Shown here: positions 58,022 through 64,000 of the stretch, in pieces
Numbering within the stretch: the first letter of the stretch is position 1
How the letters are laid out: every line of letters begins with the position of its first letter
Source: Candidatus Multivoradales bacterium
GTDB taxonomy: Bacteria; Acidobacteriota; Thermoanaerobaculia; Multivoradales; Multivoraceae
Reading direction: 5' to 3'
DNA length: 64,000 nt
NCBI GenBank assembly: GCA_965223325.1
Contig: CBDCWI010000002.1
Span: 832,001 to 896,000 of the forward strand
Program-made: the position numbers and the translations under genes
Notes under the pieces: model-generated
The model's database searches: none
What the model was told of the DNA's origin: nothing
Seen by the model: only the letters and a program-made list of their open reading frames with translations

Positions 58022-60778
58022 TCAGTCGTGGCGAAGGGCTTCGCTGGGGGCGATGCTGGCTGCGCGGCGGGCCGGGATCAGGCAGGCGAGGGCGGCGCTC
58101 GCGAGCAGGGTTCCGGTGACCAGGGCGATGGTGACGGGATCGGTCGGCGACACGCCGTAGAGAATCGCGCTCAGTGAACGGGCGGCGACGAGTCCGAGGC
58201 CGACACCCATGGCCAGACCGATGGCGGTTAGAAGAACGCCGCGTTGCAAGACCATGGTGATGATCTCGCGGTAGCTTGCGCCAAGTGCCAGGCGCACTCC
58301 GATTTCATGTGTGCGGCGCCCGACCGAGTAGGCAAGCACCCCGTAGAGTCCGACGGCCGCCATCAAGAGACCCAGGATCCCGAAGAGGCCGAAGAAGATC
58401 GCCGCCAGTCGAGGCAGCGACATCACCGGCGCCATCAAATCTCCAATCGGGCCGAGGGCGCTGACCGCCAGGTGGGGATCCTGCTTGCGAATCGCCCGAC
58501 GAACGAGCGACGTCGCCGCCAGGTCGGCGCGATCGAAGCGCACAATAGCCGTCCGTGAGCTAGAACCAAACTGGTCGATGGGCAGCCAGATGTGCCAACG
58601 CGGTGCCTCCCCGAGAACGCGGTAGGAACCGTCCGCCGCAACACCGACGACTTCGAAGGGTTCACCCTCCGGGCTAGTCCAGAAGTGCTGACCCAGCGCC
58701 TCCTCGCCCGGCCAGAGATCGTCGGCCATGACCCGGCTGACGACCGCCGTGCGCGCCGCACCTTCGCGGTCACGCTCGTCGAGCACACGACCATGGATCA
58801 GCGGAATCTGCATGGTCTCGAAGTAGCCCGGGCCGACGAACGCGGTATCGGCGCGCGGCCATTGGTCGAGCGGCACTTCGAGGCGGCTGCGGTCGGCGAT
58901 ATCCCAGGTGTTGATCCACATCGTGAGCGGAACGTGACTAGCGGTGCTGACCGAAACCACCCCAGGAGCGCCTGCCAGGTCTTCGGTCAGCTGGCTGTAG
59001 AACTGCGTCGCTTGCTCGTCGTTGTAGCCCTGGAGCTCCGGATCGAGCTGCGCGACGACGACACCATCGGGCTCGAAGCCGAGGTCCATGTTGACCGCGT
59101 TGCGTGCCGAGCGCGCCGTGAGAACCGCCACCACCAGAAGCAAAGCTGACAGCGCGACCTGCACGACCACCAGACTGCTCTGCAGGCGAATGCCGCGACG
59201 GGAACCGCCGCTGCGCTCTTGATTGTCGCGCAGAATGCCCGAGCTTCCCGACAGGCTTTCGAAGGCCGGCACCAGGCCAAACACCACTGCCGTCACGAAC
59301 GCCAGACCCGCGGTCGCTGCCAGCACGCGGTGGTCGATCTGAAGCCCTAGTTCGATGGGAATGAAGAGTGCGAAATCGAAGCGACCGAGGAGCGCCTGGA
59401 ATGCTGCTACCACTATCACCGACAGAAGTGCACCGAGCACCGCGAGGACGAGGCTCTCGACCATCAACTGACGGAGCAGTCGGCCGCGCCCGGCGCCGAG
59501 TGATCTGCGTAGCGCCAGCTCGCCACGACGGGCGATCCCGCGCGCCAGCAGCATATTGGCGAGATTGGCGCACGCGATCAAGAGCACCAGTCCCACCAGT
59601 GCGAGCAGAATCGCCGAGCCGACTTCGAGTCCGTCATCGACTGCCGAGATCAGGCGCACGTCATGGAGGGCCATGCTGATGAACTCGACCTGCTCGTTGC
59701 TGTCGGGGTACTCGGATGCGATCTGTAAACCACGCGCGCCGACCGCGGCTTCGGCCTCACTGAAGGACACACCCGGGTCGCGCCTGGCAATCGTCCACAG
59801 CCAGCGTCGACCACGCTGCTCAACGAGCGGCAGGCCATTGCTCGACGACCCGCTGCTTTGCATGGGCGCCGCCTCGATCGCCAGACCCCAGTGCAGCGGC
59901 ATCCACAGTTCCGGTCCCAACGACCGAAACAGGCCGGTGAACTCGGGGGGCGCAACGCCGACGATCGTCGCGATCTCACCGTTGACCCTCACCGTCTTAC
60001 CGACCACGTCGCGGGCACCGCCAAAGCGCATTCGCCACGCTCGATCAGAAAGCACAACCACCGGCTGGAAGCCGGCGGCGCCGTCATCGTCGGCCTGCAA
60101 CAGACGCCCGAGCCGGGGCTTGACACCGAGCAGCTCGAAGTAGGTGCCGCTCGCCATCTCGACCACCGCAAGCTCGGCCTGACCGTCGACCTCGAGCGCC
60201 ACCCGGCTCATCGCATAGGCGGAAACCGTCTCGAGTTCTGGCAACGAACGCAGGTCTTGGATGTCGGGGTACGACATGGGCTCGGTCGGAAAGAAGCCGT
60301 TGGGCTGCACGGTGTAGAGCCGCATGACCTCATCCGGACGCTCGACCGGATACGGCCGCAGGAGCAGCGCGTCAACGAGGCTGAACACCGAAACGTTGAG
60401 CCCGATACCGAGCGCCAGAGTCAGCGCCGCCACCAGGGCAAAGCCAGGGTCACGGCGTAAGCGGCGCATCGCAAGTCGAAAGTCGGAGCGCAGTCCCGTC
60501 AACCAGCCGCTCGCCCCCGACCCCGACTCGACCGCCGCGGGTGTCAGCCCGCGGCGACGTGGGTGCCTGGCCAGGTTCGCCGCCAGCTCCTCAAAGCCCG
60601 GCGCTTGCAGGTCGAGAAAGCGCTCGAACGCCACCTCATCACGATCACCGTTTTCGGACTCCCAGGCGTCGCGCAGAATCTGTGCCAGCTCCTCAACCAC
60701 CTCGACCTCGTCGGCCGGATCGAGACCCAACCGCGGCAGGTTCGACCGCACGATCGCTTCCCAGTCGCGCTCAGACAT
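58022..60778 (-). CDS. ADOP-type duplicated ABC permease with N-terminal permease-prefix domain
   Basis: EVVEELAQ prefix; D.RLA.RRL.RDPGF, LLIACANLANMLLAR, RTHEIGVRLALGA, PARRAA. Confidence 0.93.
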   Translation of the reverse strand: MSERDWEAIVRSNLPRLGLDPADEVEVVEELAQILRDAWESENGDRDEVAFERFLDLQAPGFEELAANLARHPRRRGLTPAAVESGSGASGWLTGLRSDFRLAMRRLRRDPGFALVAALTLALGIGLNVSVFSLVDALLLRPYPVERPDEVMRLYTVQPNGFFPTEPMSYPDIQDLRSLPELETVSAYAMSRVALEVDGQAELAVVEMASGTYFELLGVKPRLGRLLQADDDGAAGFQPVVVLSDRAWRMRFGGARDVVGKTVRVNGEIATIVGVAPPEFTGLFRSLGPELWMPLHWGLAIEAAPMQSSGSSSNGLPLVEQRGRRWLWTIARRDPGVSFSEAEAAVGARGLQIASEYPDSNEQVEFISMALHDVRLISAVDDGLEVGSAILLALVGLVLLIACANLANMLLARGIARRGELALRRSLGAGRGRLLRQLMVESLVLAVLGALLSVIVVAAFQALLGRFDFALFIPIELGLQIDHRVLAATAGLAFVTAVVFGLVPAFESLSGSSGILRDNQERSGGSRRGIRLQSSLVVVQVALSALLLVVAVLTARSARNAVNMDLGFEPDGVVVAQLDPELQGYNDEQATQFYSQLTEDLAGAPGVVSVSTASHVPLTMWINTWDIADRSRLEVPLDQWPRADTAFVGPGYFETMQIPLIHGRVLDERDREGAARTAVVSRVMADDLWPGEEALGQHFWTSPEGEPFEVVGVAADGSYRVLGEAPRWHIWLPIDQFGSSSRTAIVRFDRADLAATSLVRRAIRKQDPHLAVSALGPIGDLMAPVMSLPRLAAIFFGLFGILGLLMAAVGLYGVLAYSVGRRTHEIGVRLALGASYREIITMVLQRGVLLTAIGLAMGVGLGLVAARSLSAILYGVSPTDPVTIALVTGTLLASAALACLIPARRAASIAPSEALRHD

Positions 60779-61130
60779 CACGCCCTCCAATCAATGCCTC
60801 TTCGAGATCAAAACCCACGATCTGGTGCACCGCACGAATGAACTCGAGCCACTCCGCGCGCTCGACCCCGAGCGCATCGCGGCCGCGTTTGGTCAGTCGG
60901 TAGAAGCGCCTCCGCCGCTCCCCCGCCTTCTCCACCCAGCGACCACGAATCCAACCCCGCTCCTCGAGTCGCGAAAGCAGGGTGTAGAGCGACGCCACGT
61001 GAAACACCAGCGCGCCGTCCGAGCGCCGTTCGATCTGTTTGGCGATTTCATAGCCGTGCCGATCACGCTCGCCAAGGAGCGACAGCACCAGCATGTCGGC
61101 CGCTCCTTTCTTTCGTTCCCGATCTCGCAT
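60771..61130 (-). CDS. PadR family transcriptional regulator (Acidobacterial type)
   Basis: KKGAADMLVL..L..HGYEI, SLY.LL.RLE.RGWI, RRRFYRLT..G. Confidence 0.92.
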   Translation of the reverse strand: MRDRERKKGAADMLVLSLLGERDRHGYEIAKQIERRSDGALVFHVASLYTLLSRLEERGWIRGRWVEKAGERRRRFYRLTKRGRDALGVERAEWLEFIRAVHQIVGFDLEEALIGGRDV

Positions 61131-61138
61131 CGCGGACT

Positions 61139-61165
61139 CCTATAGATGGTAATACCACCTATAGG
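61139..61165. promoter_or_regulatory. Palindromic operator directly upstream of padR
   Basis: CCTATAG-A-TGGTA-A-TACCA-C-CTATAGG: 27 bp with one mismatched pair, 8 nt from the start codon. Confidence 0.65.
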
Positions 61166-61359
61166 TACGCAACAGGTACCGGCCAGGTTTCAAACGAGGC
61201 GGGCATCGTGGCGCGGCGGCCCAGGCTTCCCTCCAGAGACCTCCGAACCACCGTTCCAACGAAGGCACGAATCCGCGGCGCGCGACCAACGAATCGAAGT
61301 CTCATCAAGCACCATCAGGGCGGAAACCACAGCAGGCAACACCCGCAACGGACCGCTTG

Positions 61360-63269
61360 GATACGCCGGGATAAACCGGCATGGAGAAAGGAATGAGAGA
61401 GTCCCACCCTCGAAGGGGTAGCGACCCAGAGGGTCCCCGAGTCATGCGCCGGCTCCCGCGAGGGTGCGGTGAAGCGTTGACAGGGGCACACACAGGCCGG
61501 GTATTGAGCCGCGAAATAAGAATTTGGGAGTGCCGACGCTGTCAAGCGAAGCGGAAGGCGAGACTCCGTAGCGCGCTATCGCGAGCTCTGCGGCGACTCC
61601 CCGCGGTCGTAGACCCTGTGCATGTGTGGAATCTCCATGCGCGAGAACCGGGAGATCCGCGATCTGGCCAGTTGGGTATCTGGTCCGCATCGGGAAGGCT
61701 AGAGGCCGTAAGCCGATGACGCACGGATGGCGGAAGTCAGACAGGCCCGTAGTACCTGCGAAGTCGTCGAACAACGGTGGGAGACCAGCGGCGGAGGCGG
61801 TGGAGGGAAGGGGCCTGGCCAAGGGGAACACGGGCAAGCAAAACGCACCCCGGACACAGAGCCGGATGGAGAGTGCGAGCAATGCGCTGGGCCGTGTACG
61901 AGAAGCCGCCCGCAGGGGCAAGGAAGTGAAGTTCACAGCGCTTCTTCACCACATCACGGTCGAGCGACTCCGGAGCGCATTTGACGTGTTGCACCGAGAC
62001 GCAGCGGCAGGAGTGGACGGAGTGTCATGGAGCGAGTACGCAGAATCTTTGCTGAGCAATCTCGAGGACCTGCACTCTCGTGTCCACCGTGGGAGCTACC
62101 GGGCGAGTGCGACTCGTCGCGTCTACATCGAGAAATCGGATGGGCGGTTCCGACCGCTTGGCATCGCCACGTTGGAGGACAAGATCCTTCAGCGCGCCGT
62201 CGTCTCGGTGTTGGATGCGATCTACGAGGAAGACTTTCTCGGGTACTCATACGGATTCAGGCGAGGCCGCAGCCAGCACGATGCTTTGGATGCGCTATTC
62301 GTTGGAATCACAAAGCGGAAGGTGAACTGGGTGCTCGACGCAGACATTCGTGGGTTCTTCGATGCCCTGGACCACGAGTGGCTGGTGAAGTTTCTCGAGC
62401 ACCGTATCGGAGACCGTAGGATCCTTCGCCTCATCCAGAAATGGCTGAGGTCCGGAGTGATGGAAGACGGTAAGTGGCACGCGAGCACGCGGGGGACTCC
62501 TCAGGGGGCGACGATTTCGCCTCTCCTCGGGAACGTGTACCTGCACTACGTGCTCGATCTCTGGGTCCAGCAGTGGAGGAAACGCAACGCGCTTGGGGAC
62601 ATGATCTTCGTGCGCTACGCGGATGACTTCATCGTTGGATTTGAGAGGCAGGAGGAGGCAGAACGATTCCTCGAGGAACTGAACCTGCGACTCCGTGACT
62701 TCTCGTTGGAGATCCAACCCGAGAAGACGCGCCTGCTGGAGTTTGGCCGCTTTGCGGCCTACAACCGACGCGCGCGAGGTCTCGGGCGGCCGGAGACCTT
62801 CGAGTTTCTAGGCTTTACGCACTGCTGTGCGCAGTCTAGTCGAGGGAGGTTCTTGCTGAAGCGCATCACGAGCCGCCACCGAATCCGCAGGACACTGAAG
62901 GCTGTCGGTACGGCCCTTCTGGGACACCGACACTCGCCGCTACCAGAGCAAGGTCTCTGGCTGGGATCCGTGGTGCGAGGCTTCAATGCCTACTACGGCG
63001 TACCCGGCAACTCAGCGGCGTTGAACGCCTTTCGACAGGAGGTCATTCGGCACTGGATGCGCGCTCTGCGCCGACGCAGTGACAAAGACCGCACGTCCTG
63101 GAAACGGATGTGGGCCCTGGTGGCCCACTACCTACCCAAAGCCCGAGTCCAACATCCCTGGCCTGATGAGCGACTTGTCGTCAATACCTGAGGCAGGAGC
63201 CCAGTGCATTAGCAGTGCACGCTGGGATCTGTGCGGGGGGCGCCGGGCAACCGGCGCTCCTACCGCGAT
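61360..63269 (+). mobile_element. Group II intron (IIB ribozyme, probably bacterial class E), full length, 1910 nt
   Basis: Boundaries fixed by comparison with the empty repeat units. EBS1 CAAGCG (61543-61548) pairs with IBS1 CGCTTG (61354-61359). DI stem GCATGGAGA/TCTCCATGC. DV at 63197-63229 with AGC triad and AC bulge. DVI with bulged A63262. Ends in AT. Confidence 0.95.
61866..63191 (+). CDS. ltrA: Group II intron reverse transcriptase/maturase without endonuclease domain
   Basis: AAGVDG, RPLGI..EDK, SYGFR, DADI.GFFD, GTPQG..ISPLL, RYADD, FEFLGF, maturase X domain. The frame is open further upstream; ATG 61866 chosen as likely to lie in domain IV. Confidence 0.95.
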   Translation: MESASNALGRVREAARRGKEVKFTALLHHITVERLRSAFDVLHRDAAAGVDGVSWSEYAESLLSNLEDLHSRVHRGSYRASATRRVYIEKSDGRFRPLGIATLEDKILQRAVVSVLDAIYEEDFLGYSYGFRRGRSQHDALDALFVGITKRKVNWVLDADIRGFFDALDHEWLVKFLEHRIGDRRILRLIQKWLRSGVMEDGKWHASTRGTPQGATISPLLGNVYLHYVLDLWVQQWRKRNALGDMIFVRYADDFIVGFERQEEAERFLEELNLRLRDFSLEIQPEKTRLLEFGRFAAYNRRARGLGRPETFEFLGFTHCCAQSSRGRFLLKRITSRHRIRRTLKAVGTALLGHRHSPLPEQGLWLGSVVRGFNAYYGVPGNSAALNAFRQEVIRHWMRALRRRSDKDRTSWKRMWALVAHYLPKARVQHPWPDERLVVNT

Positions 63270-63917
63270 CGCCGCAAAGGTGATCAGTAGCAGGCGCCGT
63301 GGTAACGACCCAACGCATCTGCGAGGTCACCGCCCCACACCCACCGCAAGCCAGACGGAGAGCGCCAACCAAAGGCCGCTACCACGGCACCGACAGGCTT
63401 CCCTCCAGAGACCTCCGAACCACCGTTCCAACGAAGGCACGAATCCGCGGCGCGCGACCAACGAATCGAAGTCTCATCAAGCACCATCAGGGCGGAAACC
63501 ACAGCAGGCAACACCCGCAACGGACCGCTTGCGCCGCAAAGGTGATCAGTAGCAGGCGCCGTGGTAACGGCCCAACGCATCTGCGAGGTCACCGCCCCAC
63601 ACCCACCGCAAGCCAGACGGAGAGCGCCAACCAAAGGCCGCTACCACGGCACCGACAGGCTTCCCTCCAGAGACCTCCGAACCACCGTTCCAACGAAGGC
63701 ACGAATCCGCGGCGCGCGACCAACGAATCGAAGTCTCATCAAGCACCATCAGGGCGGAAACCACAGCAGGCAACACGCGCAACGGACCGCTTGCGCCGCA
63801 AAGGTGATCAGTAGCAGGCGCCGTGGTAACGACCCAACGCATCTGCGAGGTCACCGCCCCACACCCACCGCAAGCCAGACGGAGAGCGCCAACCAAAGGC
63901 CGCTACCACGGCGACTG

Positions 63918-64000
63918 CTACAACCGTTCTTCGATGAACTCCGTCATACGACGGTAGAGGTCGTAGACCAGGTTCGGGTCGCGCACGCCGTGGCGGGAGC
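63918..64000 (-). CDS. C-terminus of an S9 (dipeptidyl-peptidase IV-like) peptidase, partial
   Basis: Minus frame reads SRHGVRDPNLVYDLYRRMTEFIEERL*, resembling the S9B tail with the catalytic His. Confidence 0.6.
   Translation of the reverse strand, partial: SRHGVRDPNLVYDLYRRMTEFIEERL

Follow-up and report, generated by a model that had tools for sequence, protein, structure and literature searches.

A multicopy group II intron at one site of a structured, stop-codon-associated repeat in a Multivoradales genome

We analysed a stretch of 64,000 nucleotides (nt) from Candidatus Multivoradales bacterium (GenBank assembly GCA_965223325.1, contig CBDCWI010000002.1, positions 832,001 to 896,000; hereafter the window), in which a group II intron is inserted into a tandem array of copies of its own target site. 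The genome carrying the window comprises 6.69 Mb in two contigs, labelled C1 and C2 in the coordinates below. Our analysis reveals the array as a single locus of a structured repeat that is dispersed through the genome and located at stop codons, a setting that the initial annotation of the window had overlooked. The intron is most probably an active, endonuclease-less element specialised on one site of this lineage-specific repeat, with the arrays arising from the biology of the repeat itself.

The intron occupies positions 61360–63269 of the window on the + strand (1910 nt, starting with GATACG and ending with GCGAT), with boundaries given by comparison with empty sites. Its in silico excision joins a 5′ exon (61222–61359), identical to positions 1–138 of the second unit and ending in the intron-binding site 1 (IBS1) sequence CGCTTG, to a 3′ exon (63270–63393), giving a 262-nt unit. 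Two further units follow on the same strand, at 63394–63655 and, as the terminal unit, at 63656–63922, the latter matched by a covariance model (CM) at C2:895682–895922. The initial annotation had described an intron within a tandem array of its own empty sites, and this description stands; the restored unit, which had been called exact, agrees with unit 2 in length and register but differs from it at 1 base. Unit 3 differs from unit 2 at 2 bases over 63656–63912, where the similarity within the array stops. Tandem Repeats Finder (TRF) reports a period of 262, 2.5 copies and 99% matches for 63270–63912, and 2.98 copies for the window array in the intron-excised genome; the similarity between units is not due to chance, given unit-to-unit BLAST E-values of 1e-128 to 1e-134. 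As had been noted, the CGCTTG|CGCC junctions are uninterrupted at 63531/63532 (unit 2) and 63793/63794 (unit 3), and their CGCTTG is complementary to the exon-binding site 1 (EBS1) of the intron, CAAGCG, which pairs at 6 of 6 positions.

It is extremely improbable that the array is an assembly artefact of a single unit, even though no short-read contig spans it. The units are distinguished by point changes, and 43 other loci with the same architecture are present in the two-contig assembly. Moreover, unitigs assembled from two short-read runs contain pieces of the unit at depths of 46.6 and 41.2 versus 22.8 for the flank (run X1) and of 17.8 and 29.6 versus 11.8 (run X4); at 1.5–2.5 times flank depth, the unit is multicopy in the raw data. 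The intron reaches about 9–10 times flank depth in the same runs (218 versus 22.8 and 103 versus 11.8). These depths agree with a multicopy unit and a multicopy intron, the exact assembly counts of 3 units and 14 introns being finer than depth can fix. Two other runs (X5 and X6), filed under other organism labels, contain the intron without differences together with flanks of other loci of this genome, which indicates that this strain, or one very close to it, also occurs at low depth elsewhere.

The ribozyme and the encoded protein are both recognized by established models. The Rfam family group-II-D1D4-6 (RF02005) matches 61398–61616 over its full length (model positions 1–225 of 225) with 180.6 bits and an E-value of 8.5e-54, well above the gathering score of 49. 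EBS1 (61543–61548, intron positions 184–189) is placed by the Rfam alignment in a hairpin loop and is exactly complementary to the six bases that end the 5′ exon. The open reading frame (ORF) at 61866–63191 encodes a reverse transcriptase (RT)/maturase according to the TIGR04416 equivalog model (342.9 bits, cut-off 300); a Pfam scan of this protein found RVT_1 only and no endonuclease domain, and its closest solved chains are group II and IIC RTs. Domains V and VI are predicted at 63197–63269 from a ViennaRNA fold of the last 110 nt (−53.4 kcal/mol), in which these last 73 nt of the intron form two hairpins, the first opening with GAGCC and the second containing an unpaired A near the 3′ end.

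Genome-wide, the intron is found in 14 full-length copies, of which 12 are identical and 2 differ by one change (99.948% identity), which points to recent mobility, and the insertion boundaries are identical in all 14. A 239-nt 3′ fragment and a 36-nt piece are also present; the former (C2:4242250–4242488), 97% identical and joined to the 3′ half of the repeat element, is either a 5′-truncated insertion or the product of a later deletion. Beyond this genome, the only trace of a related intron in the same-genus genome G001 is a degraded fragment with unrelated flanks, and a related intron in genome G036 starts with GAUGCG. In another genome, of the same order, some 418 nt (L039; G034:C5, about 2461187–2461604) match intron positions 59–157 and 1820–1896 only and are possibly an ORF-less derivative of a related intron.

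The choice of target is very sharp. Thirteen of the 14 full copies lie at the same position of one repeat family, with shared flanks ..GGACCGCTTG|CGCCGCAA.. that show small variations and with the junction CGCTTG|C(G/A)CC inside the repeat. The heptamer formed by IBS1 and IBS3, CGCTTGC, occurs 1,811 times in the intron-excised genome, including 129 occurrences inside elements; 13 of these 129 are occupied, versus 1 of about 1,680 others. Sites of the form GGACCGCTTGC are occupied in 11 of 101 cases. Because element sites hold 13 of the 14 introns despite the 1,811 heptamers, recognition must require more than IBS1 and IBS3, and the proposal of the initial annotation that a multicopy repeat serves as a landing pad is well supported. 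Entry takes place between element positions 111 and 112 (G111 and C112), inside the 3′ strand of a long-range helix (H1, described below); a U-tract terminator is absent from this site. The single ectopic copy (C2:2349730–2351639, site GAGCGCTTG|CAGT) lies, once excised in silico, in sense orientation within a 234-codon open frame and may interrupt a gene. We also observed a sub-family of the element in which the intron site is directly followed by an insert of about 35 nt with many C5/G5 runs (CCCCC..GGGGG..GGGGG), which replaces GCAAGAGTGAC; examples are C2:4367075–4367376, C2:4105433–4105959, C2:3962431–3963378 and C2:2886983.

The repeat element is about 241 nt long. Profile search of the intron-excised genome gives 186 hits (201 with an earlier profile) in 64 loci, of which 44 contain two or more adjacent units and 20 a single one; a genome-wide count of this kind had been proposed in the initial annotation. 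Array periods range from 128 to 360 nt and are locus-specific, with TRF matches of 86–100% within arrays, and copies from different loci are about 70–75% alike. The element is contained in 39 of the 74 tandem arrays in the genome with a period of at least 80; of the remaining 35, several fall within long open frames, which makes them probable coding repeats, and about twenty short ones look non-coding.

RNAalifold analysis of 21 copies revealed two long-range helices with 23 pairs, 10 of them with compensatory changes. In a set of 39 representatives, one per locus, helix H2 (positions 129–144 with 224–239) comprises 16 base pairs that are 98% canonical, with at least two pair types at 12 positions, and H1 (28–35 with 110–117) comprises 8 base pairs. 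The wobble G35·U110 is kept in 38 of the 39 representatives, and the other GU or UG pairs outnumber AC or CA pairs (8 versus 3), which indicates that the folded strand is the + strand, that is, the sense strand of the intron. Rfam contains no family for this element, with nothing better than E = 0.3 in the window region and eight representative loci.

The gene context of the element is asymmetric. By a longest-ORF heuristic, the gene downstream lies on the opposite strand in 53 of 64 loci, whereas the gene upstream shows no strand bias (32 versus 32). In 33 of the 48 loci whose terminal unit is complete, the stop codon of the longest convergent frame falls within −8 to +3 of the element end; for 29 of these it coincides exactly with the CTA of the terminal CTA(G). 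Of the 33 frames, 22 span at least 400 codons (manual count). At the window, the minus-strand gene for an S9 prolyl-oligopeptidase-family protein (C-terminus at 63918–64000; Pfam PF00326, 3.2e-53) has its TAG stop at 63918–63920, inside the last bases of the terminal unit. This frame runs for at least 500 codons without a stop before the CTA of that unit, and the PF00326 match extends to residue 282 of 283, at profile position 209 of 213. The intron is thus antisense to the peptidase gene, which abuts the element, and here also to the padR gene on the other side, both flanking genes being oriented against the + strand of the array. Since gene order around this locus is not shared with the same-genus genome, no orthologous empty site is available to fix the ends of the element.

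The element is very narrowly distributed. A search with a CM (model R1) found it in 2 of 41 related genomes: this one, where 52 of 52 scored candidates were matched, and G005, of the same family and another genus, with 10 matches. The same-genus genome G001, which is 99% complete, gave none. An exact-pattern scan of 185,579 species genomes returned 44 loci in one metagenome-assembled genome (MAG) of the Thermoanaerobaculia, again G005, and a metagenome collection returned one CM-confirmed locus on one contig. The pattern scan also produced one match in an Ectothiorhodospiraceae MAG, which the CM failed to confirm and which we treated as a chance occurrence.

The copies in the relative are of a shorter element, near-identical to each other and bounded by CTAG on both sides. 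Their ends (GGTCGACTAGGCC... and ...CCACGAGCCCGC) are, by eye, not inverted repeats, and the terminal inverted repeats (TIRs) that define a miniature inverted-repeat transposable element are thus missing. Frames of at least 100 codons terminate at the TAG of this CTAG in 11 of 35 testable loci for the 3′ end and in 14 of 31 for the 5′ end. Head-to-tail pairs sharing a CTAG occur in at least four loci, where the upstream copy is only about 83% like the reference. Contig ends account for about 20 of the 44 loci (manual count), and the short-read assembly may thus conceal further arrays. These features are consistent with a mobile, TIR-less element that has CTAG as its entry site, a sequence that often serves as a stop codon where GC content is high.

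Strong covariation, a conserved G·U wobble on the intron sense strand and C/A-rich single-stranded stretches between the hairpins of the element consensus could also be the marks of functional small-RNA genes organized in gene arrays, from whose transcripts the intron would be spliced out and which the ribozyme may process at the IBS1 junction, as the initial annotation had suggested. The intron must in addition be transcribed on the + strand of the element somewhere, given its 14 identical copies. We nevertheless regard RNA genes as unlikely. Covariation in hairpins is also expected of single-stranded-DNA elements, the element end overlaps opposite-strand stop codons in 33 of 48 loci, and internal array units lack the 3′ arm of H2. 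The presence of the element in 2 of 41 relatives and its absence from the same-genus genome are not what a functional gene would predict, and neither are the near-identical, CTAG-bounded copies of the relative, which look like the outcome of a burst. At the window, a sigma-70 promoter scan of 60900–64000 gave 0 sites, and hence no promoter-like match on the + strand.

Most arrays are independent of the intron. Introns occupy 11 arrays and 2 single copies; 33 of the 44 arrays are intron-free and none contains two introns. Target sites number 117 in arrays and 12 in single copies, and the 11 of 13 insertions that fall in arrays match this availability (binomial p = 0.34). In some arrays the repeated portion is limited to the 5′ part of the element and contains no target site (units 6–79 and 2–100), and several arrays are 5–8% diverged (TRF matches 92–94%), in contrast to introns that are at least 99.95% identical. 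The relative, which is without this intron, also carries head-to-tail copies. Intron-free arrays, availability-matched occupancy, target-less units and array divergence argue against construction of the arrays by the RT, at least in general. This counts against the suggestion in the initial annotation that the array was made by the RT copying spliced or circular exon RNA; likewise, the co-occurrence of arrays with the intron lineage that it had proposed to check is not generally seen, since three quarters of the arrays (33/44) do without the intron and arrays at 92–94% stand beside introns at 99.95% or more. For introns of the IIC-attC type, a part in cassette formation has reportedly been proposed, which parallels an RT-built array.

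A more specific version of this process, in which an RT, that of the intron or another, copies a unit-length RNA with end-to-end template switching and the concatemeric cDNA recombines into the donor locus, draws on array periods that cluster near the element length and on the positions of the breakpoints. By eye, the 3′ breakpoint of internal units lies within the final ~22 nt of the element, or slightly past its end, in 24 of 24 near-full-unit arrays. In 15 of these, internal units diverge at positions 220–234, just after ACCACG(G), at the start of the 3′ arm of H2, and the full arm is present in the terminal unit only; the window array is among them, with unit 3 as its only unit with the full arm (ACCACGGCGACTGCTAC). 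The 5′ breakpoints are variable; a fixed 3′ end combined with variable 5′ ends would be expected of copying from a defined RNA 3′ end. Automated calls are noisier, with 12 of 39 at 219–233, 12 at 234 or beyond and 15 elsewhere; the by-eye counts are softer than a proper alignment, and the automated calls are disturbed by indels. In the array at C2:698706–701377, the unit with the intron is preceded by four partial units whose ends lie no more than 1 nt from the intron site, although one breakpoint at the intron site among about 40 arrays is within chance. Set against the intron-free, target-less and diverged arrays, the occupancy and the relative's head-to-tail copies, this route to the arrays appears improbable.

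A defined end, or a stall at a hairpin in RNA or DNA, would explain the clustering of 3′ breakpoints. It is possible, though still unlikely, that the element is a new structured, strand-specific repeat that amplifies from a defined end at ACCACG|G, with intron insertions and arrays as two outputs of one single-strand process. The end could be the 3′ end of an RNA that a reverse transcriptase copies with end-to-end template switching; alternatively, a site-specific nick could serve as primer for rolling-circle-like copying. In the RT and the nick variants alike, the common process would be replication-linked and would act on a single strand at the H2 hairpin.

The specialised-intron reading, which we favour, can be put together as follows. 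With its CTA(G) end usually coinciding with the stop of the convergent gene, the element occupies the first bases after genes, a position in which insertions do little harm. Its + strand is predicted to fold into H1 and H2, and the intron would reverse-splice into this strand between G111 and C112 through the EBS1/IBS1 pairing (CAAGCG/CGCTTG) and further determinants in the element. Insertion may take place while the strand is single-stranded at the replication fork, with the nascent DNA strand as primer; for endonuclease-less group II introns, an earlier report describes the use of replication-fork strands as primers (PMC4424553). We infer that arrays form by self-adjacent insertion, local amplification of the element or both, rather than through the intron RT, and that the window array, where one of three sites is occupied, is an ordinary example.

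Several observations do not sit easily with this account. Clustered 3′ breakpoints are not accounted for by it, and within-array identity of up to 99% is not explained by the insertion of diverged copies. In this genome the 5′ end of the element has no consistent CTAG, which is found at the 3′ end only, and ‘CTAG-targeting’ therefore rests on the relative. No transposase partner emerged from a search for recurrent neighbours, in which the largest protein cluster covers 5 of 63 loci. On the intron side, the 5′ end is GAUACG, whereas the usual group II consensus is GUGYG, and the Rfam D5-D6 model has no match at E ≤ 1 in the window region despite the fold resembling domains V and VI. The source of specificity beyond IBS1 and IBS3 was not found in the intron sequence: GGTCCG (intron 323–328) could pair with exon positions −11 to −6 but lies downstream of EBS1, which is atypical for EBS2, and no EBS2 was identified. 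Splicing and expression of the intron, as well as the strand on which the element acts, are predictions from sequence.

Transposases of the IS200-like type were a candidate partner. Pfam Y1_Tnp has 28 matches in this genome, in frames of about 320–410 amino acids, versus 6 in the same-genus genome, and the matches include clusters of nine within 31 kb (C2:4455510–4486968) and of six within 18 kb at the end of C1 (C1:2126128–2143849). These genes are not adjacent to the elements: only 1 of 28 lies within 600 nt and most are more than 30 kb away. The element-bearing MAG has no Y1_Tnp match, and the TnpB-type Zn-ribbon was not found in the three genomes searched (this one, G001 and G005). An IS200/IS605 link for the element was rejected on the basis of the non-adjacent Y1_Tnp genes and the lack of a TnpB-type Zn-ribbon.

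There are known precedents for group II introns homing into repeated elements. In Sinorhizobium meliloti, RmInt1 is described as homing into the insertion sequence ISRm2011-2 and spreading through the copies of that element (PMC1802570). Our intron resembles RmInt1 as an endonuclease-less intron with its homing site in a multicopy mobile element, a comparison of target mode and not of ribozyme class. It differs in that the target is a non-coding, TIR-less repeat of about 241 nt at stop codons, often arrayed, and not a transposase gene. IIC introns are reported to insert after terminators and into the bottom strand of attC, opposing cassette transcription (PMC3001079, PMC4424553). The present intron is similar in homing into a repeated, folded motif after genes and in being antisense to the abutting gene, a likeness of target mode and not an assignment to class C. 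In contrast, the element has no visible attC R or L boxes and no cassette ORFs, and IBS1 here is 6 nt.

Comparison can also be made with the repetitive extragenic palindromic (REP) sequences, bacterial interspersed mosaic elements (BIMEs), REP doublets forming hairpins (REPINs) and the palindrome-associated transposable elements (PATEs) derived from IS200/IS605. These share with our element a short non-coding sequence with compensated hairpins, the lack of TIRs, a location after genes and use as a target by other mobile elements; in Pseudomonas putida KT2440, 2 of 9 group II intron copies are listed as REP-associated (PMC1525189). However, the element described here is far longer, with a 16-base-pair helix enclosing about 80 nt. 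REPs and REPINs with their REP-associated tyrosine transposases (RAYTs), like the IS200/IS605 PATEs, are associated with a Y1 (HUH) transposase, and the repeats in this genome are not.

In a limited collection of literature, searched without supplements, we found no account of this element, nor of an intron that resides in tandem copies of its target. What is new is the type of target, a long structured stop-codon repeat that forms arrays, together with the very sharp site preference. The system offers a clean natural case of nested parasitism, in which a retroelement reaches 14 copies by means of a repeat in near-neutral positions after stop codons. It bears on how endonuclease-less introns find single-stranded, structured DNA, and the strong preference for the element site is of practical interest for targetron design. 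The repeat is itself an undescribed structured element, whose covarying 16-base-pair helix and recurrent breakpoint pose a question of mechanism.

The upstream side of the window array abuts the upstream region of padR, a context gene on the minus strand that encodes a PadR-family regulator (60771–61130; Pfam PF03551, 1.9e-23). Downstream of padR on the same strand lies a gene for a permease with MacB_PCD and FtsX domains (58022–60790; Pfam PF12704, 2e-33, and PF02687, 1.2e-20). The promoter and terminator scan of 60900–64000 shows weak terminator-like matches on the minus strand. Directly upstream of padR, about 55 nt from the start of the array, a near-palindrome CTATAGATGGTAATACCACCTATAG at 61141–61166 is likely to be an operator.

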